Under the pieces are notes generated by a model. That model saw only the letters and a list, made by a program, of their open reading frames with translations. It had not been told where the DNA came from and ran no database searches. 64,000 nt of DNA, taken from NCBI GenBank assembly GCA_050258555.1, contig JBLMZA010000046.1, positions 7,855 through 71,854 of the forward strand. The letters run 5' to 3'. Shown piece by piece: positions 1-9,529 of the stretch. This stretch comes from Acidobacteriota bacterium. GTDB taxonomy: Bacteria; Bacteroidota; Ignavibacteria; UBA10030; UBA8401. The translations under genes were made by a program, and so were the position numbers. Position 1 is the stretch's first letter. Every line of letters starts with the position of its first letter.

Positions 1-1038
1 GTTGAACGTGCGGTCGTAGCGCGCCAGTTCGTTCTGCGTAAGCGCCGTGTTGAAGTCGCCGAAGAGCGCATACGAACGGTTGCGTTCGATCTTCACGAAG
101 AACGGGTTGTTGGACTGCGCCGTGTAATCGACCGTGCTGTTGTCGCCGTAGATCGAATACAAGACGTCGGGATCGACCTCTTTGAAAAGCCGATCCTGAT
201 GCCGCGTATTGTCGTACGATGCCGTAAGAAGATAATTGCTCCAGATGGTGCCGCGTCCGTAGAACGCGAGGCGTCCGTCGGTATGGATGCCCTTGTTGAG
301 CAGATGCTCGTCCCTGAGCGCCGAAAGATCGCCCGATGTTTCGAGGCTCGTCGCCGAGCCGTCAGCCGAACCGACGAGCATGAGCGGCTCGACCGGCGTT
401 GAAAATTCGAGCGACGATTTCCGCTCGATGCTGTTCGCCGTCACCGAAAGGCCGTAGGTTCCGGCAGCGCGCGGCGATTTCAGATCGAATGTGACGCTCC
501 CGTCCTGCAGTTTCCTCTGGTATCCCGGCGTGAGCGGATCGGCATCCGCACCGCCGACCTGCAGGCTGTCCACGGCAAGCGTGACCATATATCCGTCGGG
601 AATGATCCTGCCCCACTTGTCGAAGACCACCGCCTTCACGGGGACGATCGACTTGCCGTCGGCAGACTGCAGATCCTGCGGAACGGTCACCGCGATGGAC
701 TCGGGCGCGCCGAACCGGTGCATGGACCGTTCGGCGGAATACTGCCGGCTGCCGAGCGTGACGACAACGCGGTATGTGACCGGACCTTCAGGGGTCTCCA
801 CGCCGAGGAATTCGAACACGCCGTCCGGCCGGACGTTGCCCGAGTCGGACGGCATGCCGTTCACATACAGCTTCACCGGAGAACCGGCCGGCGCCGTGCC
901 CGCAACAAACTGGTACTTGAAGTGGCTGACAAAGTTCTCCCTCGGCTCGCTGATGCGCACCTGCGCACCGGCGAACTGACAGAGCACCATCAGCCCTCCA
1001 AGTACCAGCGTTACATATTTTTTCGTTGCTGCGGACAT
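1..1038 (-). CDS. Secreted/outer-membrane protein with an N-terminal signal peptide, Ig-like (Big-type) domains and the start of a probable C-terminal beta-barrel. Partial: the 3' end lies beyond the window start.
   Basis: Reverse-strand translation from the ATG at 1036-1038 gives MSAATKKYVTLVLGGLMVLCQFAGAQ..., a signal peptide, followed by repeated beta-sandwich-like segments. It then reads ...YSIYGDNSTVDYTAQSNNPFFVKIERNRSYALFGDF, an alternating hydrophobic pattern typical of an outer-membrane barrel. It is not in the ORF track because it runs off the window. Confidence 0.45.
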   Translation of the reverse strand, partial: MSAATKKYVTLVLGGLMVLCQFAGAQVRISEPRENFVSHFKYQFVAGTAPAGSPVKLYVNGMPSDSGNVRPDGVFEFLGVETPEGPVTYRVVVTLGSRQYSAERSMHRFGAPESIAVTVPQDLQSADGKSIVPVKAVVFDKWGRIIPDGYMVTLAVDSLQVGGADADPLTPGYQRKLQDGSVTFDLKSPRAAGTYGLSVTANSIERKSSLEFSTPVEPLMLVGSADGSATSLETSGDLSALRDEHLLNKGIHTDGRLAFYGRGTIWSNYLLTASYDNTRHQDRLFKEVDPDVLYSIYGDNSTVDYTAQSNNPFFVKIERNRSYALFGDFNTALTQNELARYDRTFN

Positions 1039-1081
1039 TCAGTCACGTTCCGTGATTTTTTTTACTTCAGGTGCTTCTCTG

Positions 1082-2890
1082 TTACTGCACGAGCGTTTTG
1101 TAGCGGTACTTCACCGTGCTGCCCGAAGGGATCGATGTGAACGTCACCGTGACAATGCCGCTGCTGACGGTGATCGTGCCGCCGGTGAACGAGCCGCCGT
1201 TATCCTTGCCTGTTACCGTCCAGCTGTTGTCGCCCGCGGGATCGACATCGATGCTCGAAGCGACAAATGTGTTCGAACCTGTATGCGCAAATCCCAGATT
1301 CGACGAACTGATGGATGTCGCATTGCCCGTGCCCGCATTCTGAATCGTCACCGTCCACTGGACCACGTCGCCGGGAGCCGGATTCGCCGGCGTGCCGACG
1401 CCGCTTGCAATCGTGTTTGCCAGCGAGACATTCAGGACGGGTGCCTTCACCGTCGTCACCAGCGGCGCGGTATATGCGGCTGATGTCGATCCTCCGACAG
1501 GAGCATCAGGTGTGGCTGTGGCGGTCGTGACCGTGATGTTGCGCTGGATCTTCTGTCCGTCGGTTGCCGAAGCCGGCACCGTGAGGCGCACGAACAGATC
1601 CTGCGTTGCGCCGGCATTGACCGCTGTCGTCACCGTCACGGCTGTTCCGGCGGCCGTCATGGCGAAGACATGGGCGACATCGAGGTCACCGAGATTCCGG
1701 GCATCCGCAAGCGAATAGGTATCCTGATGGTTGCCCGTGTTTTTGATCGTGAATTTATACTCCACCACATCTCCTGGATTTCCCGAATTGTTCACAGGGG
1801 TTGCCGTCCAGGTCAGACCCGAGGCTTTGCCGACGGTGAAATTCAGCGTTCCGCCGGCGGCGTTATACCATTTCGTGTTCGATGCTTCCTGGAGATATTT
1901 GAGATATACGCGCGCGCTGTTGGCCGGATCGTTCATGTAGATCGAGGTGCCCTCGGTCACGCCGGTGTTGGAATTCTGCGTCTGATCGATGGTATATGTC
2001 ACATCGAACGTCACGGGAGAGGCCATCGATGCCGGAAGCTGTGCGGCGGTCAGCGTGAAGACCTTCCATCCCGATGAATCCGCCGCGGCGCTGCCGGTCG
2101 TCGATGCATACGTCATCAGCGAAGAATTGTACTGCCAATACACCTGGGAGGCGGCCGTGGGTGCAACGCTTCCGGTGTTTTGGGCGCTCACACGGTATGT
2201 GATCTGCTTTCCCGGAATGCGCGCCGCGTTGGCCGTCGTGTTCGTCACCTGCGTCACGCTGAAAGCGATGACCGGCTTCTTGACGGTGTATGTGTATGTG
2301 TATGTGAACGCGGCGTTCTTGTTCACCACCACCGTATCCGTTCCGGCATCGGCCGCCTGCGAGGTCATCGTGACCGTGATGCCGCAGGCGTCGTTATCCG
2401 GTGTTTCGGATGCGACCTGTATGCGAAGGAGCATCTTCCGCGCCGCATCGGCGGCCATGCCGCCTGTGTTCGTGATGACAACCTCGCCGGCATCAAAGCT
2501 GCCGTTTCCATTGGCATCGTTCATCACATCGACGGTATACTTGGCCGTATTGCTTCCGGACTTCGAGACCGCGATGGCGAACTGGTCCCAGCGGTTGCCG
2601 TTCTGCGTGAATGTGAGCGGCACATAGATTGTTTTGTCATCGACGCCGTTGCTGGAGCCTGAAGAAGGACTGAAGGACGCCGTGACCTTGTGGCCGATGT
2701 GCAGCGTGACCGTAGCGGACGTCGCCGTGCGCGGATTCGATCCCGCATTGAAATTCACGGTCGCCTTGTTTGTGATGGCGGTTCCGGCCGTCGTTCCATT
2801 GGCATACAGAGACGGTCCGGCTGAACACCAGAGAAGCGCCGCGAGTACCGCACTCAATCGGAGCCCCGACCATGTAGTAAATCGTTTCAT
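1082..2890 (-). CDS. DUF11 (conserved repeat domain, TIGR01451-type) surface protein, paralog 1. It is Thr/Ser-rich, has a signal peptide and lacks a T9SS CTD.
   Basis: The N-terminal signal peptide is MKRFTTWSGLRLSAVLAALLWCSAG. It carries repeated DUF11 signatures such as GKQITYRVSAQNTGSVAPTAASQV, GDVVEYKFTIKNTGNHQDTYSLAD and GDVVQWTVTIQNAGTGNATSISSSNLG. It contains a (TY)3 stretch. Confidence 0.75.
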   Translation of the reverse strand: MKRFTTWSGLRLSAVLAALLWCSAGPSLYANGTTAGTAITNKATVNFNAGSNPRTATSATVTLHIGHKVTASFSPSSGSSNGVDDKTIYVPLTFTQNGNRWDQFAIAVSKSGSNTAKYTVDVMNDANGNGSFDAGEVVITNTGGMAADAARKMLLRIQVASETPDNDACGITVTMTSQAADAGTDTVVVNKNAAFTYTYTYTVKKPVIAFSVTQVTNTTANAARIPGKQITYRVSAQNTGSVAPTAASQVYWQYNSSLMTYASTTGSAAADSSGWKVFTLTAAQLPASMASPVTFDVTYTIDQTQNSNTGVTEGTSIYMNDPANSARVYLKYLQEASNTKWYNAAGGTLNFTVGKASGLTWTATPVNNSGNPGDVVEYKFTIKNTGNHQDTYSLADARNLGDLDVAHVFAMTAAGTAVTVTTAVNAGATQDLFVRLTVPASATDGQKIQRNITVTTATATPDAPVGGSTSAAYTAPLVTTVKAPVLNVSLANTIASGVGTPANPAPGDVVQWTVTIQNAGTGNATSISSSNLGFAHTGSNTFVASSIDVDPAGDNSWTVTGKDNGGSFTGGTITVSSGIVTVTFTSIPSGSTVKYRYKTLVQ

Positions 2891-2938
2891 TTTGATTGGA
2901 TCCTTTTAGTGAATGGATAGTCATTGATGCATCTTGCA

Positions 2939-2967
2939 GGCCGGGAGGGTATCACTCCCTCCTGGCC
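2939..2967. other. GC-rich intercistronic stem-loop between the two DUF11 paralogs, with no T-tract after it.
   Basis: GGCCGGGAGGGT-atca-CTCCCTCCTGGCC forms a stem of about 12 bp with one wobble or mismatch and a 5 nt loop. It sits in the 88 nt gap between the stop codon at 2979 and the start codon at 2890. Confidence 0.3.
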
Positions 2968-2978
2968 CGATGATCGCG

Positions 2979-4709
2979 CTACTTCGTCAGCGTGATCACG
3001 TATTTGTATCTCACAATGCCGTCTTTCGGAATCGGCGGGAATGTCACTTTCACCGTTCCGCTAGAGTTGACAACCGAGCCGGCGCCGCCGGCGCCAAATG
3101 TCGCGCCGTCCGCCTGATCGGTGATCTCATAGGTGCCGTTGCCGTCGGCATCGATATCCACCTTGCCCATCTGTATGTCGCCGACCGGGAAAGGAGAAGT
3201 ATTCTGCGATGACACGGACAGGGCGGGTCTCGAGCCGTTGTTCGTAATCGTCACTTCGTATTGGATTCTCTGGCCCGGATCAGGATTGGCAAGCTTGGCG
3301 CCGTCATCGAGGTTCGTGCCCACGAGCGTGATGCTCAGGAGCGCGCCGCTGACGGTGGTAGTCAGATTGCTCAGTACGGGTGAAGGACTGCCTACCGGCG
3401 TTGCGCCGCCGGTCGACTTGCGCGTCACGGTGATCGTCTGCACGCTGACTTTTTTGTCGATCGCCCCTTCAGGAGCGGTGACTGTGAACACGATATCCTT
3501 CACGGCTCCCGGTTCCACGGTGGCGACGTCATTTTCGTCAAACGAATACGTTGCGCCGGTCAGATTGTCGCCGGTGCCGTCGGCATTGGCGATGGTAAAG
3601 CCGTCTGCCACGTTGCCCCAGTTTTTCACTTTCAGCGTGTATGATTTCGATGCACCCGGTTCGACCGTGTAATCGGTCGTCGCCGGATCGACCGCGATCG
3701 AGAATCCCTTCACGGTAATGACCGTAAACGATTTCGGCGCGTCATACGTCCATGTGCGTGAGCCGTTGCCGTCGCTGTAGACGACTTTCGACGCTGCATC
3801 GCCGACCGTGTATGTTCCCGCTGCAAGTGTCGGGCTGATCGTCGTTGTGAACGTCAGTGTCGAGCTCCCTCCGGCGGCAATCGATGCGATCGAGAACTTG
3901 GCGAGTCCCGCATCGGCTGCGGGCGTGACGGATGAGAACAGCGAACTGACATACGCCCAGTCGACGTTCAGCGACGTCGCGGCGGCGCTTCCCGTGTTGT
4001 TCACGACGATCGAATACGTGAGCGCATCGCCGGGCTTCATGCTCGAAGGATCGGCGGGCGTCGATGTCACGTTCACCGAGATCAACGGCTTTGAAATGGG
4101 AACTGTGGCTGTGAATGCATCGGATGCACCATGTTCATTCACGATATTATAAGGGACATCCGCATCGTTCATCTGGGATGTCGCCTTTACGAGAATCGTG
4201 TACGATGTTCCGTCCACGGTCGTCGTATTGTCGACGTCGAACGGGATCGTGACGCGGGCCTTCAGGCTGATGCTGCTTCCGCTGGCAAGGTTCACGGTCG
4301 AGGCAGCACTGCCGTCCGAGGCTTTCACGAAGGCAACACTCCAGCCGAGTGTTCCGCCGGTGGGACGCGTACCGCCCGTGACCGACAATGCAAAGTCATC
4401 CGTCGCGTTGCCCTGGTTCGTCACGGTGAAGGGAATTTCGATCGTCGTGCCGTCTGTTGTCGCCGAGGCGGCCAGCGCGGAGGTGATGTCGATCGCGACC
4501 TTATAGGCCACCGTGATGACCACGGGATCCGACGAGATCGACCGTGTATCCGATGTGGACGCCGCTTTATAATCGACCTTGGCGACGGTCGTGATTGTGG
4601 TCCCAGCCGGCGTACCGATCGCATACGCGGCATTGCCCGCAATCATCAGCATCATCATACCGGTAACCGCCGGGATGATGATGGTGGAGAACAAATTCCT
4701 GCGTTTCAT
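2979..4709 (-). CDS. DUF11 repeat surface protein, paralog 2. The start is placed at the internal Met that begins a signal peptide.
   Basis: MKRRNLFSTIIIPAVTGMMMLMIAGNAAYA is a signal peptide. DUF11 signatures include GDALTYSIVVNNTGSAAATSLNVDWAY, GASKSYTLKVKNWGNVADGFTIANAD and GQRIQYEVTITNNGSRPALSVSS. Its N-terminus (GTPAGTTIT..AKVDY) and its C-terminal ~55 aa (..VKVTFPPIPKDGIVRYKYVITLTK) are homologous to those of paralog 1. Confidence 0.75.
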   Translation of the reverse strand: MKRRNLFSTIIIPAVTGMMMLMIAGNAAYAIGTPAGTTITTVAKVDYKAASTSDTRSISSDPVVITVAYKVAIDITSALAASATTDGTTIEIPFTVTNQGNATDDFALSVTGGTRPTGGTLGWSVAFVKASDGSAASTVNLASGSSISLKARVTIPFDVDNTTTVDGTSYTILVKATSQMNDADVPYNIVNEHGASDAFTATVPISKPLISVNVTSTPADPSSMKPGDALTYSIVVNNTGSAAATSLNVDWAYVSSLFSSVTPAADAGLAKFSIASIAAGGSSTLTFTTTISPTLAAGTYTVGDAASKVVYSDGNGSRTWTYDAPKSFTVITVKGFSIAVDPATTDYTVEPGASKSYTLKVKNWGNVADGFTIANADGTGDNLTGATYSFDENDVATVEPGAVKDIVFTVTAPEGAIDKKVSVQTITVTRKSTGGATPVGSPSPVLSNLTTTVSGALLSITLVGTNLDDGAKLANPDPGQRIQYEVTITNNGSRPALSVSSQNTSPFPVGDIQMGKVDIDADGNGTYEITDQADGATFGAGGAGSVVNSSGTVKVTFPPIPKDGIVRYKYVITLTK

Positions 4710-5296
4710 CTGTAACTCCTGTTTTGAATTTGTTGTGTTGGGTGGTGTGAGTGATTGTTTGTTCATTCGTGTTTCTGCTTCAAACTTCTATTGCCGCATC
4801 GAAAGCGGTCTCCGCTTGTCATGGTGATTTGTTGTTCACGATATCCTCCTGATGAGTGGTTGTGTCATGTCATTAGTCAGTGAATATTTTTTTTTCAGTT
4901 TATCGCTAATATTTTTTCAACTTGTGCCGATACTCTTGTTGCGATGGATCTCGGACGGACGCAGTTCACCGGTGCATCGGGATCACCTACTCGATGTGCT
5001 TACACTTCACCCGCACGTTGAGGATTCTCTCACCAGGAGGCAAGCATCGATGATGTAATGATTGGGGGGCTTTCAGTTTTAAGGCATGCTGTAGTCAGAC
5101 GTTATCTGTATACATAAAAGGAACTTCTGCCAGAAGGCCGCGAATTAATTGTAAATACACCCAGTACACCAAGTGCAAAAATACGATTCCGTTCTTCGGG
5201 AATCAACATCTTTTTCAGTTTTACTTACAAATATAGGTAACATTATTGTTCTGATGTTGTGACACAGGTTACAATCCCAAAATATTTGTTTTTAAA

Positions 5297-5333
5297 CGAA
5301 AAAGGGCGGAAAAGCCCTCCGGCTCCTCCGCCC
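5297..5333 (-). terminator. Rho-independent terminator of the T9SS cargo gene.
   Basis: On the minus strand GGGCGGA...TCCGCCC is followed by TTTTTCG. It lies about 50 nt downstream of the stop codon at 5385. Confidence 0.55.
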
Positions 5334-5384: not shown

Positions 5385-7229
5385 CTACTTGACAAACTGC
5401 ATCCGCTTTACCTCCGTTCTGCCTCCGGACCTGAGCGCATAGAAGTACAATCCCGAGGGAATATCCTTCGCATCGAAGACCACCGAATGCATCATGCCCG
5501 CTTCGGCGACGCCGTCGAAGAGCGTCCGCACGTTCTGTCCGAGCGTGTTGTAGACATCGAGCACCGCCCGGCCCGTCTTCGCCACGGCGAATCGGATCGT
5601 CGTCGAGGGATTGAAGGGATTGGGATAATTCTGCGTCAGTTCATACGCCGAGAATGCGAGACCGGCCGCTTCGACTTCCCCGCTGTATTCGATGCGTCCA
5701 TCCCTGTCGATTTGCTTCAGACGATACGCCGTGATTCCGGCCGCGCCGCGATCGGCATACACATACGACTGCGGTGCATTCGTGGTGCCGGCGCCCGGCA
5801 CAAACCCGATTTTGTGCCATTGCCGCGTAGTCCCCTTTCCGACTGAACTTCGTTCGATCTCGAAACCGTAATTGTTCTTTTCCGATGCCGTCTTCCAGCG
5901 AAGCACGATCGTGCCGTTGGCGGATGCGGCGGAAAACGAAACAAGCTCGACAGGAAGCGGATCAGCAGGCGCCATGGCGATGTAGAACGTCTGCGCAAGA
6001 TCCGTTTCGCTGAGTTCCGAACGGTTCAGCACCGTATCGCTGCCGACTACGGCAAAGGGTGCGGGCGTTCCAGGAGCCGCGCCCGCCTCGAGGCCGAGCG
6101 TAAGATTGGCCGGCGGAAAAGCCGCCGCGTCCAGCCCCGATGCCTGTATGCGCAGATCGGTCAGCCCGGCATACCCGGATCCGGGAGTGATCGTCCAATT
6201 CATGGCATGCCGCTGAGTGTAGCTGAGCGCATTCTCGGTAAATGGAGAGGCAAACACCGTGGTCCCGGAGCCATCGGCATGCGTCATCGTGATCGTTCCC
6301 GATCCCGCATGCGATTTGGCGATCCATACTTTCCGGGGCATCCGCACGCCTCCCGGCAGCGGCCCCGCCGCCGCTCCCATCGGAAAATATCCCGCAAGGT
6401 CGCCGATCGAAACCGGATCGGCCCCGATCCATCTCGTCAATGTCCCGATCACAAGGCCCGGGGGCGTCGAGGCAACGCCCGTCACCCGAAACGCTCCCGG
6501 AGATGCGGCGGAGGTCCCCACCGTCAGCGTGTTGCCGCCTGTCAGAATCGTCCCGCCTTCCATCTCGAGAATGTTGACGACGAGCGACTGCGCCAGCGTG
6601 ATGACGGCCGTAGACTTCAACCGGAAATAATCCAGCGCGATCGGCGATGCCGTGCCTCCGATGGTCGAAATGCCGTCGAAGACGATGCGCGTGGTCGGTG
6701 TCGTCGCAAGCGTCGCGCCGGCATTGACGGTCAGGTCGCCGGCGATATTGAAAAATTCCGCATCCACGTTCAGCGTCCCGTCGATGACGATGTTGTGGAT
6801 GCCGAATGACTGCCCTGGTCCGACAAGCGCGGAAATGACGTGCCCCGCATTGATCGTGATATCGTCTGCCAGCGTCGGAAGGCTTTCCGTCGTGAAGGCG
6901 AGATCCGTATATGTGTCGGCCGCCGGAGCAGCCAGCAAGAGTTCCGTATCATTGAGCACCGAAGCAATCGCCCCCAGCACCGTCAGGCCGTCATCGCTCG
7001 TGATATTGGCATACCCCGGCGCGGGCAGAAAGAGCTTCGTGAATTCAGTGCCCGTCCCCGTGACGAGGGCCGATCCCTGTGTGATCGTGATGGTGCCGGC
7101 ATGTACCGCTCTCCAGACCGAAAGAGAAACTGCGCTTCCCGATGCCTTCGTGTAAAATGCATCGGCATGCGCCGCGTGCGGAAGCAGCGCGAAGCACAGC
7201 ACGGCGATTGCTGCAGTGGCAAGTTTCAT
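5385..7229 (-). CDS. Large secreted protein with a beta-helix-like N-terminal region, an FN3-like module and a T9SS (Por secretion) C-terminal sorting domain.
   Basis: The C-terminus reads ELTQNYPNPFNPSTTIRFAVAKTGRAVLDVYNTLGQNVRTLF...GLYFYALRSGGRTEVKRMQFVK, a canonical T9SS type-A CTD motif (YPNPFNPxTTI). PVELVSFSAASANGTIVLRWKTASEKNNYGFEIERS is an FN3-like module. The signal peptide MKLATAAIAVLCFALLPHAAHA starts at 7229. The track's M at 7286 is a GTG codon. Confidence 0.8.
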   Translation of the reverse strand: MKLATAAIAVLCFALLPHAAHADAFYTKASGSAVSLSVWRAVHAGTITITQGSALVTGTGTEFTKLFLPAPGYANITSDDGLTVLGAIASVLNDTELLLAAPAADTYTDLAFTTESLPTLADDITINAGHVISALVGPGQSFGIHNIVIDGTLNVDAEFFNIAGDLTVNAGATLATTPTTRIVFDGISTIGGTASPIALDYFRLKSTAVITLAQSLVVNILEMEGGTILTGGNTLTVGTSAASPGAFRVTGVASTPPGLVIGTLTRWIGADPVSIGDLAGYFPMGAAAGPLPGGVRMPRKVWIAKSHAGSGTITMTHADGSGTTVFASPFTENALSYTQRHAMNWTITPGSGYAGLTDLRIQASGLDAAAFPPANLTLGLEAGAAPGTPAPFAVVGSDTVLNRSELSETDLAQTFYIAMAPADPLPVELVSFSAASANGTIVLRWKTASEKNNYGFEIERSSVGKGTTRQWHKIGFVPGAGTTNAPQSYVYADRGAAGITAYRLKQIDRDGRIEYSGEVEAAGLAFSAYELTQNYPNPFNPSTTIRFAVAKTGRAVLDVYNTLGQNVRTLFDGVAEAGMMHSVVFDAKDIPSGLYFYALRSGGRTEVKRMQFVK

Positions 7230-7356
7230 TGATCTCTCCATGAATGAACGCTCCAGATTGATGTGATTCTCCCCGCACGGTGTCACCCTCTCCCTGTGAA
7301 TATGTTTTCCCTGTTTCCTTGTGGGGAAATATCACAAAAGAGGCTTCATGATGAAA

Positions 7357-7414: not shown

Positions 7415-8575
7415 TCAGGATGCGGCGAACTCGGCAGGAAGCGATTCGGAGAGTCCGAAGTAGTGAAGGATGATCTGGACGATGCGCGCCGATGCGCATC
7501 CGTCGCCGTACGGATTCACGCCTGTTGACATGGCGCGGTAGGCGTCGCCGCTATCGAGCAGTTCGCGGGCCGCCGAGACGATCGCCGCTTCATCGAGGCC
7601 GACGAGTCTCACGCATCCGGCGGCGACCGCTTCGGGACGCTCGGTCACCGTGCGCAGCACGAGCACCGGCTTGCCGAGCGACGGGGCTTCTTCCTGGATG
7701 CCGCCCGAATCCGTGATGATGAAGAACGACGCTGCCATCAGGTTCACAAAGTCGGCATAGGCGAGCGGTTCACACAGCAGAATATTCTTGACGCCGTTCA
7801 GCTCAAGTCGCAGCAGCGAACGGACTTCCGGATTTCGATGCATGGGCAGCACGAATGCCGTTTCGGGAGATTCGAGCGCAAGCCGCCGCAGCGCGCAGGC
7901 GGCGGCACGCATGGGCGCTCCCCAGTTTTCCCGGCGGTGCATGGTCGCCAGGATGATCTTTTTTCCGGAGCGGACGAGCGGCCGGAGCCTCGGCTCGCTG
8001 AACCGGTAGGCCGGACGGACCGTCGCCCTGAGCGCATCGATGACCGTATTGCCGGTGATGAAGATCTTCTTCGCATCGACGCCTTCGCGCACGAGCGCCG
8101 TGCGCGCCGTCTGTGTGGGCGCAAAATGCAGCGCCGCAATCGAGGAGGTTAGGCGCCGGTTCATCTCTTCCGGAAACGGATTCCCTACATCGTCGGTGCG
8201 CAGCCCGGCTTCGATGTGTCCGACCGGAATGCGCCGATAGAAGGCCGCCAGTGCCGCGGTGAACGTCGTCGTCGTGTCGCCCTGCACCAGCACCATATCC
8301 GGCTCCACGGCGCTCAGAAGCGCATCGAGCGGACGAAGCGCCCGCGCGGTGATCTGGGCGAGCGACTGGCGCGTGCGCATGATGTTCAGATCATAGCGGG
8401 GACGTATGCCGAAGCTCTTCAGCACCTGGTCGAGCATTTCACGATGCTGCGCCGTCGCGATGGGAACGACCGAAAAGGCATTGCGCTCGCGGGCGAGCGC
8501 TTTCAGGACGGGCGCGCTTTTGATCGCATCGGGACGTGTTCCGAAGACGACCGCAATGGTCTTTTTTCGTTTCAT
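7415..8575 (-). CDS. wecB: UDP-N-acetylglucosamine 2-epimerase (non-hydrolysing).
   Basis: MKRKKTIAVVFGTRPDAIKSAPV... and the full length match the WecB/MnaA fold. Motifs include HVEAGLRT, GNTVIDAL and ITDSGGIQEEAPSLGKPVLVLR. Confidence 0.85.
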   Translation of the reverse strand: MKRKKTIAVVFGTRPDAIKSAPVLKALARERNAFSVVPIATAQHREMLDQVLKSFGIRPRYDLNIMRTRQSLAQITARALRPLDALLSAVEPDMVLVQGDTTTTFTAALAAFYRRIPVGHIEAGLRTDDVGNPFPEEMNRRLTSSIAALHFAPTQTARTALVREGVDAKKIFITGNTVIDALRATVRPAYRFSEPRLRPLVRSGKKIILATMHRRENWGAPMRAAACALRRLALESPETAFVLPMHRNPEVRSLLRLELNGVKNILLCEPLAYADFVNLMAASFFIITDSGGIQEEAPSLGKPVLVLRTVTERPEAVAAGCVRLVGLDEAAIVSAARELLDSGDAYRAMSTGVNPYGDGCASARIVQIILHYFGLSESLPAEFAAS

Positions 8576-8716: not shown

Positions 8717-9529
8717 ATGCGCGTCATCATACAACCGAATTATGAACTTGTGAGCAAATGGACCGCGGCCCACGTGGTACGGTCGATCAACGATTTCAAG
8801 CCGACGCCGCGCAAGCCCTACGTGCTCGGTCTGCCCACAGGCTCCTCCCCGCTCGGCACATACCAGGAGCTCATCCGGCTGCACAAGAAGGGCGTCGTGT
8901 CCTTCAAAAACGTGATCACATTCAACATGGATGAATACGTCGGACTGCCCGAGAAGCATCCCGAGAGCTACCATTCGTTCATGTGGAATAATTTCTTCCG
9001 ACACATCGACATCAGGAAGGAAAACGTCAACATCCTGAACGGCAACGCGAAGGACGTCGAGAAGGAATGCGCCCAGTATGAAGCGAAGATCAGGAAGGCC
9101 GGCGGCATACAGCTCTTCCTCGGCGGCATCGGCCCCGACGGCCACATCGCCTTCAACGAACCCGGCTCGTCGCTCTCCTCGCGCACGCGCGTCAAGACGC
9201 TGACCTACGACACGATCCTTGCCAATTCCCGCTTCTTCGACAACGATGTGACGAAGGTCCCGAAGACAGCGCTCACGGTCGGCGTGGCGACGATCCTCGA
9301 TGCGAAGGAAGTCCTGATCATCATTAACGGACATAAGAAGGCCCGCGCTCTTTCGCATGTGGTGGAAGACGGCGTGAACCATATGTGGACCGTCAGCGCG
9401 CTGCAATTGCATCCGAAGGGCATCATCGTGTGCGATGATGAAGCAACGGATGAGCTCAAAGTCGGAACCGTCCGTTATTTCAAGGACATCGAGTCGGCAA
9501 ATCTCGATCCCGAACGGCTGCTGGCGTAA
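8717..9529 (+). CDS. nagB: Glucosamine-6-phosphate deaminase.
   Basis: [15 protein letters not shown]..., [19 protein letters not shown] and [18 protein letters not shown] are canonical NagB motifs. Confidence 0.9.

Follow-up and report, generated by a model that had tools for sequence, protein, structure and literature searches.

Paralogous DUF11 proteins with a putatively split terminal domain, encoded beside a predicted giant outer-membrane barrel in an Ignavibacteria genome

Genes and domains at the locus

The DNA analyzed in this work (hereafter the window) is a stretch of 64,000 nucleotides from contig JBLMZA010000046.1 (positions 7,855 to 71,854, forward strand, assembly GCA_050258555.1) of a bacterium deposited as Acidobacteriota and placed by GTDB in the Ignavibacteria (Bacteroidota). 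It begins with three consecutive minus-strand genes encoding, in order of transcription, two paralogous proteins of the DUF11 family, named here P2 and P1, and the first part of a barrel protein, P3. The open reading frames (ORFs) delimited in the initial annotation of this stretch are confirmed: P2 (2979..4709, minus strand, 576 amino acids (aa); whole ORF 2979-4766), P1 (1082..2890, minus strand, 602 aa) and P3 (1..1038, minus strand, 346 aa, continuing past the window start). Translation of P2 probably begins with the ATG at 4709 (MKRRNLF), which is preceded by an AGGAG ribosome-binding site, and an independent gene call on the public contig that carries the same locus (L001) also gives 576 aa. 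P2 and P1 are separated by an 88-bp intergenic spacer (2891..2978, minus strand), in which a minus-strand terminator-like site was sought and none was found.

P1 and P2 are secreted proteins with signal-peptidase-I-type signal peptides, and they consist of strings of immunoglobulin (Ig)-like beads of the DUF11 type. DUF11 has been renamed CLIPPER, a CnaA-like Ig domain that often contains an intramolecular isopeptide bond (PMC12617251). The family membership initially proposed holds for both proteins: P2 exceeds the thresholds of PF01345 (32.4 bits, cutoff 24.6) and TIGR01451 (39.6 bits, cutoff 24), and P1 exceeds that of TIGR01451 only (25.3 bits, cutoff 24), its PF01345 score being sub-threshold. 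As read from the sequence, the signal peptide of P1 covers residues 1-30 (2801..2890, minus strand) and is cleaved between SLYA and N, and that of P2 ends in AAYA, before I. Directly after this last alanine, mature P1 starts with NGTTAGTAITNKATVNF and mature P2 with IGTPAGTTITTVAKVDY; in all family members, the cleavage site directly precedes the conserved N-terminal motif.

The AlphaFold2 (AF2) monomer model of P1 (predicted local distance difference test (pLDDT) 89, predicted template modelling score (pTM) 0.59) is all-beta, with about four Ig-like/DUF11-type domains, and its Foldseek matches are generic arrays of Ig beads (PrgB Ig-like domains, HYDIN-like chains and integrin legs). A P1/P2 profile had no significant match among PDB sequences. 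As first annotated, neither protein carries a C-terminal domain (CTD) of the type IX secretion system (T9SS; PF18962/TIGR04183 or type B, E <= 1) or a lipobox, and an LPXTG motif is absent as well; the sole cysteine, in P1 (LLWC), has no lipobox context, and neither protein has a Pfam match to a fimbrillin family. Within a linker strand of P1, residues ~197-206 (window 2270-2300) form an alternating run, FTYTYTYTV, that is probably a low-complexity beta-strand.

The two paralogs had been described as sharing conserved termini around differing middles. The N-terminal motif and the C-terminal strings (SSGIVTVTFTSIPSGSTVKYRYKTLVQ in P1, SSGTVKVTFPPIPKDGIVRYKYVITLTK in P2) are indeed present in both proteins, whose last residues before the stop codon are VKYRYKTLVQ in P1 and VRYKYVITLTK in P2. 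However, the middles are homologous as well, since P1 and P2 can be aligned by BLASTP over their whole length (30% identity, E = 9e-43), with 40% identity at the N-terminus, 23-39% in the middle and 38% over the last 55 aa. Among 16 family members, mean pairwise identity is 65% for the N-terminal 40 mature residues, 44-55% for the middle and 44% for the C-terminal block. The conservation of the N-terminus therefore stands, whereas the C-terminal block is conserved no better than the middle. The N-terminal strand is thus the most conserved part of the P1 family and the element conserved in all its members, and it had not been singled out before. A 37-aa C-terminal hidden Markov model (HMM) matches only about 15 close relatives and, among the P1-like ORFs located beside P3 homologs, the C-terminal profile detects 15 ORFs versus 73 for the N-terminal motif.

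The protein ends compared with the complete DUF11 domain

Both proteins end in a truncated DUF11-like domain, referred to below as the acceptor domain. That of P1 (1085..1438, minus strand, ~residues 485-602) contains the previously noted 55-aa block and the TIGR01451 match (residues 501-528), and that of P2 (2982..3335, minus strand, ~residues 459-576) is recognized by the acceptor-tail HMM (E = 2e-7). At the other end, directly after the signal peptide, lies a donor-like segment, which in P1 covers residues 31-64 (2699..2800, minus strand, NGTTAGTAITNKATVNFNAGSNPRTATSATVTLH) and in P2 residues 31-66 (4512..4619, minus strand, IGTPAGTTITTVAKVDYKAAS...; donor HMM E = 2e-12). The P2 segment has a threonine in place of the asparagine of most donors.

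A complete DUF11 domain covers the 114 positions of PF01345, including its last strands, and the C-terminal domains examined here fall short of it. In four proteins, the terminal domain halts at position 82-85 of 114, exactly at the last residue of the protein, and with P1 included the stop lies at position 77-85 of 114 (P1, a giant protein of locus L005, and proteins of loci L071, L073 and L043). The final ~30 positions of the Pfam profile are thus missing and the domain ends after the '...t.tF.V.V' strand. In complete internal DUF11 domains, this strand is directly followed by a 'GT.AGT.I.N.A.V.Y' motif. In all 79 P1-like proteins, the mature N-terminus starts, right after the cleavage site, with (A/S)-GT-x-AGT-x-I-x-(N/S/T)-x-A-x-x-x-Y, and the C-terminus of each of these proteins finishes in the pattern '...G.s.t.(i)tF.V.V(N/D/Q/K)'. 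Of the sites detected by the donor profile, 93 are N-termini and just 10 are internal. The latter are all located 2-5 residues downstream of an internal '...tFqVtV(n/d)' strand (for example, ...sgsatltyqvrva immediately followed by AGTPAGTEINNTLTVKYD in L071), and at five of these internal sites the acceptor-tail profile matches significantly as well, with its end at a projected gap of 0.

Chimeras were then built in silico by appending the N-terminal segment of a protein to its own C-terminal domain, with the reversed segment as a control. The own donor lengthened the PF01345 match to 97-110 of 114 positions in three of four tests, the protein of L043 showing no PF01345 extension, and it also lengthened matches to DUF7507, DUF7927 or DUF7619, with gains of +1 to +8 bits. 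Reversed donors gave little or no extension on most models; two PF01345 alignments were lengthened by the reversed donor too, with little or no gain in score. For P1, the acceptor domain alone matches PF01345 positions 10-77, and addition of its own N-terminal strand extends the match to position 97 (from 17.3 to 21.1 bits, +3.8), while the reversed strand gives no extension. Taken together, these comparisons constitute good evidence, at the level of the sequences of the superfamily, that a single DUF11 domain is split into two halves located at the two termini, and moderate evidence that this would apply to P1 and P2 themselves.

The barrel protein and the composition of related operons

The part of P3 included in the window comprises a signal peptide (cleavage around AGA/QV), two Ig-like domains and the first strands of a predicted giant beta-barrel. 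P3 reaches 641 aa on the public contig L001, and its full-length homologs (~990-1,060 aa, 43-71% identical) are labelled 'hypothetical protein' at their source; P3 is thus predicted to be the start of an outer-membrane protein of ~1,040 aa. The initially proposed signal peptide, Ig-like domains and barrel are all supported, by a weak Big_1-like signal in P3 and by the AF2 model of P0021, a full-length homolog 71% identical to P3 (pLDDT 77, all-beta). This model shows, in order, two N-terminal Ig-like domains, three long strands, an inserted domain and ~31 more long strands, so that the barrel would have ~34 strands as counted from the secondary-structure string of the model. The inserted domain (~145 aa, short strands) is the best-conserved part of the P3 family. 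Foldseek against PDB aligned the P0021 model, with low TM-scores (0.1-0.3), to large outer-membrane barrels (SprA, Deinococcus SlpA, the FimD usher, TonB-dependent receptors, LptD and MtrB), the best barrel matches being SprA, SlpA and the FimD usher; the Ig domains resemble Ig domains of the GH2 (glycoside hydrolase family 2) type, and a periplasmic location is predicted for them. With the extended P3 and with its full-length homologs, no Pfam or NCBIfam family reached its threshold and the only signals obtained, of the Ig type, were sub-threshold or non-significant, and a 51-sequence P3 profile had no significant match among PDB sequences. The model therefore describes P3 as a large outer-membrane barrel that belongs to no recognized family. 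A profile search of 1.84 billion cluster representatives retrieved 5,865 relatives of P3 at E <= 1e-3 and 2,484 at E <= 1e-30, the barrel family thus amounting to more than 5,800 clusters at 50% identity.

The genomic context of P3 relatives was explored by scanning one genome per GTDB species, which gave 412 relatives. From these, 80 loci were taken with their flanks, all from metagenome-assembled genomes (MAGs) of Ignavibacteria and Kapabacteria-type Bacteroidota and from Marinimicrobia, and their ORFs were searched with profiles of the P1 family and of P3. Of the 65 loci whose upstream flank reaches 2.5 kb or more, 54 have a P1-like gene upstream of the P3 gene, on the same strand and within 8 kb; in the other 11, its absence seems attributable to a contig edge, a frameshift or the start call. 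Furthermore, in many P3 relatives, found in Thermodesulfobacteriota, Latescibacterota and Desulfatibacillum, the P3 module forms the C-terminal half of a ~2,000-aa fusion, whose N-terminal half consists of a signal peptide, a donor-like motif and four DUF11 domains accompanied by SpaA, SdrD_B or CarboxypepD_reg domains. Five such fusions (P0177, P0186, P0193, P0200 and P0219; ~2,000-2,450 aa) consist of a DUF11 stalk with the donor motif and of the P3 barrel module; an OmpA domain lies between the two in P0177, and the cluster of P0200 is annotated as a SPOR-domain protein. At their source, the fusions are named 'OmpA family', 'SPOR domain-containing', 'DUF11 domain-containing' or 'hypothetical'. 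Because this synteny is conserved across phyla and is accompanied by gene fusion, a functional link between the DUF11 subunits and the barrel is very likely, as the initial annotation had supposed for the downstream gene.

The same-strand ORFs of these loci were sorted with the donor and acceptor profiles, which distinguished 69 donor+acceptor (DA), 35 acceptor-only and 21 donor-only proteins. P1 and P2 are both DA proteins, and the same profile search found these two DA genes and P3, and no further member of the system, within the 64-kb window. Orthologs of the P2 type are present in L015 and L005. Four types of operons can be recognized. In types B, C and D, the genes encode successively an acceptor-only protein, a small protein of 160-385 aa, one or several DA proteins, a protein of 0.8-2.5 kaa (thousand aa) and P3. 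The protein encoded immediately upstream of P3 is donor-only in most type-D loci and in part of those of types B and C; the single example scanned, the base protein of L073, has six DUF11 domains and two C-terminal OmpA domains. In type A, to which the window belongs, the gene for a ~300-aa regulator precedes those for one or several DA proteins and P3, after which come genes for an acceptor-only giant (2,200-3,300 aa), a protein of ~360 aa and additional donor or DA proteins. The giant of L005 (~2,500 aa) has one fn3 match, a terminal DUF11 domain that stops at position 84 of 114 and no donor motif, and it is expected to be the ortholog of the gene located just past the window start. Since orphan acceptors and orphan donors cannot complement themselves, their presence argues for complementation in trans.

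The operon types also differ in the residues that form the isopeptide bond. In types B, C and D, the acceptors keep the CLIPPER lysine ('L.L.K') and aspartate ('V.(T/S)D..P') and have no asparagine strand of their own, while most donor strands carry the asparagine (the donors of L044, L053 and L084 being exceptions); DA subunits with such acceptors were found in L042-L044, L051, L055, L056, L069 and L071-L084. Because the lysine and aspartate are kept on the acceptor and the asparagine lies on the donor, an intermolecular isopeptide lock is plausible in these three types, and these branches are candidates for natural intermolecular ligation pairs resembling SpyTag/SpyCatcher. Motif inspection of P1 and P2 gave another picture: where relatives have 'L.L.K' and 'V.(T/S)D', the terminal domain reads 'LNVSLAN' and 'SISSSN' in P1 and 'LSITLVG' and 'SVSSQN' in P2. 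The Lys-Asp-Asn triad, which is not universal in the CLIPPER family (PMC12617251), is thus incomplete in both proteins. An intermolecular isopeptide bond between P1 and P2 subunits is not supported, given this absence of lysine and aspartate and the threonine of the P2 donor, and a joint between them would be non-covalent.

Several other features of these operons deserve mention. The small operon proteins that were checked (160, 355 and 364 aa) are of the DUF11 type; these small secreted proteins (L073:2183-2665, 160 aa, and genes of ~355-365 aa such as L005:20684-21778 and L002:7051-8118) are conserved in the operons, have no donor motif and show the same split-type pattern of the C-terminal strand, and they could be adaptors, caps or chaperone substitutes. 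In type-A operons of relatives, the gene located directly upstream of the first subunit gene (L007:7055-7954 and its ~300-aa equivalents in L008, L010, L013, L022 and L054) encodes a regulator with HTH_17/MerR and B12-binding_2 domains, an architecture similar to that of CarH/LitR, which hints at a light- or cobalamin-dependent control of fibre expression in these relatives. Some genomes harbor two P3 paralogs (L040 and L051 in MAG283, L028 and L045 in REEB223, L022 and L043 in SRP237561_co1_86, and L021 and L069), ~52-55% and 38-39% identical to the query P0021 and each located in another type of operon (A and C); one cell may thus build two distinct fibres.

In the window, the place of the regulator gene is occupied by a leader of ~590 nt (4710..5300, minus strand), a low-GC region (GC content down to 0.47) that would carry the promoter of the P2-P1-P3 operon. 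A Bacteroidota-type -7-like element, TATATTTG, was read near 5229-5236, and no ORF of at least 60 aa, hence no CarH/LitR-like ORF, was found on the minus strand of this leader. The operon boundary is marked by a terminator-like hairpin (5301..5320, minus strand; 7-bp stem with 4 GC pairs, T-rich tail) that follows the upstream gene (5385-7286, minus strand). The latter encodes a 633-aa protein with a type-A T9SS CTD (PF18962 29.5 bits, TIGR04183 31.3 bits), as initially annotated, and no other recognized domain. Since it has its own terminator-like hairpin, this gene is a separate transcription unit; it is missing from L005, the closest related locus. Further upstream, the locus is flanked by a UDP-GlcNAc 2-epimerase-like gene (7415-8575, minus strand) and a glucosamine-6-phosphate deaminase-like gene (8717-9529, plus strand). 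This last neighbor (Glucosamine_iso) is kept beside the operon in L005 and helped to identify L005 as a syntenic relative.

Proposed strand complementation, rival explanations and known systems

The register of the sequences and the logic of the operons, from which complementation in trans is inferred, make us lean slightly towards a fibre assembled head to tail by strand complementation and exported or anchored through P3. P2 and P1 would be exported by Sec, and the N-terminal strand(s) of one subunit would complete the truncated last DUF11 domain of the next one. An acceptor-only protein would form the distal tip, the candidate in the lineage of the window being the ~2,500-aa giant whose gene is expected directly past the window start. 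The shaft would consist of P2 and P1 and, in the sister operon types, a donor-only stalk, encoded upstream of P3 or fused to it, would seal the base. P3 would serve as a dedicated pore for export, assembly and anchoring, and secretion would be driven by the energy of folding and complementation instead of ATP. Growth at the base, as in usher systems, and distal growth on an anchored stalk, as in curli, would both be compatible with this scheme. The proposal of the initial annotation that these proteins are polymerising subunits gains support from the split-domain termini and from the acceptor-only, DA and donor-only proteins found in operons.

Several observations weigh against such a fibre. 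The gain observed with the P1 chimera is small and leaves the match below threshold, P2 showed no gain with its own, more divergent strand, and the internal-junction HMM test in the close P1 family was weak (4-10 bits versus -7 to +6 for shuffles). Foldseek with the P1 model retrieved no pilin, flagellin or sheath fold, of the kind that had been suggested for the P1 and P2 subunits. P3 has no detectable homology to ushers, with low Foldseek TM-scores, and its function as a pore is putative. No chaperone-like gene was recognized among the scanned operon proteins, no clear donor-only base protein was seen in type-A operons, and the position of the OmpA domain in P0177 would also be compatible with a periplasmic DUF11 stalk. 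Finally, the N-terminal 35 residues of the AF2 monomer of P1 have a pLDDT of 80-90, which implies that they are docked in cis somewhere in the model: the N-terminal strands may lie on domain 1 or close a ring on the C-terminal domain of the same chain, although docking on the C-terminal domain may also reflect mis-assigned intermolecular covariation.

The latter model features would fit the best alternative, in which P1 and P2, as fibrillar adhesins or surface-layer proteins, would be self-complemented monomers that form no polymer, with P3 as their dedicated translocon or anchor, as in two-partner secretion. The N-terminal strand would then close the ring on its own C-terminal domain or belong to domain 1, and both this confident strand and the pTM of the monomer suit a structure that is compact or closed. 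In addition, no chaperone gene was recognized, and synteny and fusions support the link to P3 and do not prove polymerization. However, orphan acceptors such as the L005 giant coexist in the same operons with donor-only stalks, which end in OmpA domains or basic tails, and the short linker between the donor strands and domain 1 would favor a linear geometry over a ring. We therefore regard a purely monomeric role as unlikely.

Somewhat less probable still is that the N-terminal motif is mainly a targeting signal, read through beta-augmentation by the periplasmic Ig-like domains of P3 in a way similar to the N-domain of ushers or the POTRA domains of TpsB proteins. The motif is universal in the proteins encoded beside P3, it lies exactly at their mature N-terminus, and a periplasmic location is predicted for the two Ig-like domains at the N-terminus of P3. 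However, the acceptor-only proteins of the same operons do not have the motif yet would need the same export, and the motif is the same in kind as the strand found after the point of truncation in complete internal DUF11 domains, a resemblance that a pure address tag would not need. The targeting and donor-strand roles are not mutually exclusive.

The initial annotation had instead considered the C-terminal block of about 55 aa as a sorting or assembly signal recognized by the downstream barrel. P1, P2 and about 15 close relatives share this block, and a similar pattern of the terminal strand occurs in all P1-like proteins. However, the block turned out to be the final part of the truncated DUF11 domain with which the proteins end, its conservation does not exceed that of the middle (44% versus 44-55%), and its profile fails on most P1-like proteins encoded beside P3 (15 versus 73 ORFs for the N-terminal motif). 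It thus partly corresponds to the mere last repeat that the same annotation had named as the outcome that would disprove this idea, although a profile confined to ~15 close relatives does exist, and a role as a signal appears improbable. As for the possibility that P1 and P2 are T9SS cargo, or are unrelated to P3 and adjacent to it by coincidence, the T9SS-CTD protein encoded directly upstream implies that the organism has a T9SS, but the lack of a CTD on P1 and P2, the own terminator of the cargo gene and its non-conserved adjacency (absent from L005) led us to reject the T9SS link, and the cross-phylum linkage and fusions to P3 effectively refute the whole explanation, which we hold to be extremely improbable.

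Strand-complemented assembly through P3 invites comparison with several known systems. The closest in logic are chaperone-usher pili (Fim/Pap; PF00577, PF00345), in which an incomplete Ig-like domain is completed by the N-terminal strand of the next subunit, as proposed here. The tip (acceptor only), shaft (donor and acceptor) and terminator (donor only) would correspond to adhesin, rod subunit and terminator, and both systems would rely, independently of ATP, on a large outer-membrane barrel that bears an inserted domain and, on the periplasmic side, beta-sandwich domains. Unlike the single pilin domains of ~150 aa, however, the subunits described here are chains of 550-650 aa with about four DUF11-type domains, and the base subunit is fused to the barrel in other phyla. 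The barrels also differ in size. SprA has 36 strands, ushers have 24 and the barrels of type V secretion have 12-16, whereas P3 would have ~34 according to the count made on the model. The usher family PF00577, characterized by PapC N- and C-terminal domains, gave no match in Pfam/NCBIfam searches of P3 or its full-length homologs (E <= 0.1-5), and no PapD-like chaperone was found among the precomputed Pfam matches of four loci and the scanned operon proteins, which do not include every ORF of the 80 loci. Therefore, the system resembles a chaperone-usher pilus in its logic, belongs to this class by none of the membership tests run and shares no components with it.

Type V secretion (autotransporters and inverse autotransporters) shares with the fused relatives the layout of a passenger stalk followed by a C-terminal barrel, but the modelled barrel of P3 is far above the strand number of this class, and P3 has no Pfam match to autotransporter, intimin-type barrel or ShlB/POTRA families. 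SprA, the T9SS translocon, is among the best Foldseek barrel matches of P3, but the subunits carry no T9SS CTD. The type V pili of Bacteroidota (FimA/Mfa1) come from the same superphylum and are strand-exchange polymers that do without a classical chaperone. FimA and Mfa1 are made as lipoprotein precursors, are matured by proteolysis and have C-terminal strand donors, whereas the fold of P1 and P2 is unrelated and their signal peptides contain no lipobox. Sortase pili (SpaA/RrgB; TIGR04226) contain CnaA/CnaB-like isopeptide domains, and operon relatives score on TIGR04226, SpaA and SdrD_B; however, polymerization here would proceed by strand complementation and not by transpeptidation, there is no anchoring to a cell wall, and neither an LPXTG motif in P1/P2 nor a sortase domain among the precomputed Pfam matches of related loci was found. 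The cyanobacterial CT pilus and the DUF11 'grappling hook' of Litorilinea were also considered and proved to be unrelated systems.

The fibrillar adhesins of the CLIPPER/DUF11 family (PMC12617251; PDB 9IFR) belong to the same family (PF01345/TIGR01451) and have the same beads-on-a-string stalk, and their Lys-Asp-Asn isopeptide logic fits some of the relatives found here. The proteins described so far are long single chains in which isopeptide bonds are intramolecular and the sorting domains are known (PMC12617251), unlike the present ones, in which the terminal domain would be split between the two protein ends, P1 and P2 lack the lysine and the aspartate, and the partner is an unannotated giant barrel. 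N-strand complementation between beta-sandwich subunits, together with intermolecular isopeptide bonds, has been reported for the archaeal thread Saci_0406 (PMC9715654) and for the C. perfringens BsaA/TasA-type fibres (10.1101/2024.11.04.621531). This matches a possible mechanism of the types B, C and D that keep lysine and aspartate. However, these fibres have other folds, belong to other families and to monoderm or archaeal envelopes, and use no outer-membrane barrel, and P1 and P2 seem to have no covalent lock. No description of DUF11/CLIPPER proteins with donor-strand assembly or with a dedicated giant barrel was found in a literature search whose coverage excluded most papers of subscription journals.

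As read here, the system would consist of donor-strand fibres with an outer-membrane platform, made from non-homologous parts, and there is a substantial chance that it represents a separate pathway. More tentatively, since we consider this broader proposal possible but short of an even chance, it could be a widespread, previously undescribed fibre pathway of diderm bacteria, with split-domain DUF11/CLIPPER subunits, a spontaneous intermolecular Lys-Asn isopeptide lock in many lineages and a new giant barrel as exporter or anchor. Its range, held with the same reserve, would cover the FCB (Fibrobacterota-Chlorobiota-Bacteroidota) group, Marinimicrobia, Thermodesulfobacteriota and Latescibacterota, with barrels unrelated to ushers, to type V barrels and to SprA.

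If this is true, diderm bacteria would have an additional route to surface fibres beside chaperone-usher, type IV, curli and type V pili, the components of which are now labelled only 'hypothetical' or 'DUF11'. It would give a function to an unannotated barrel family that would be among the largest single-chain barrels, and it would explain why many 'isopeptide-forming fimbrial protein' annotations occur in Gram-negative genomes devoid of sortase. The branches that keep the lysine and the aspartate would then be natural split-domain ligation pairs, of interest to protein engineers.

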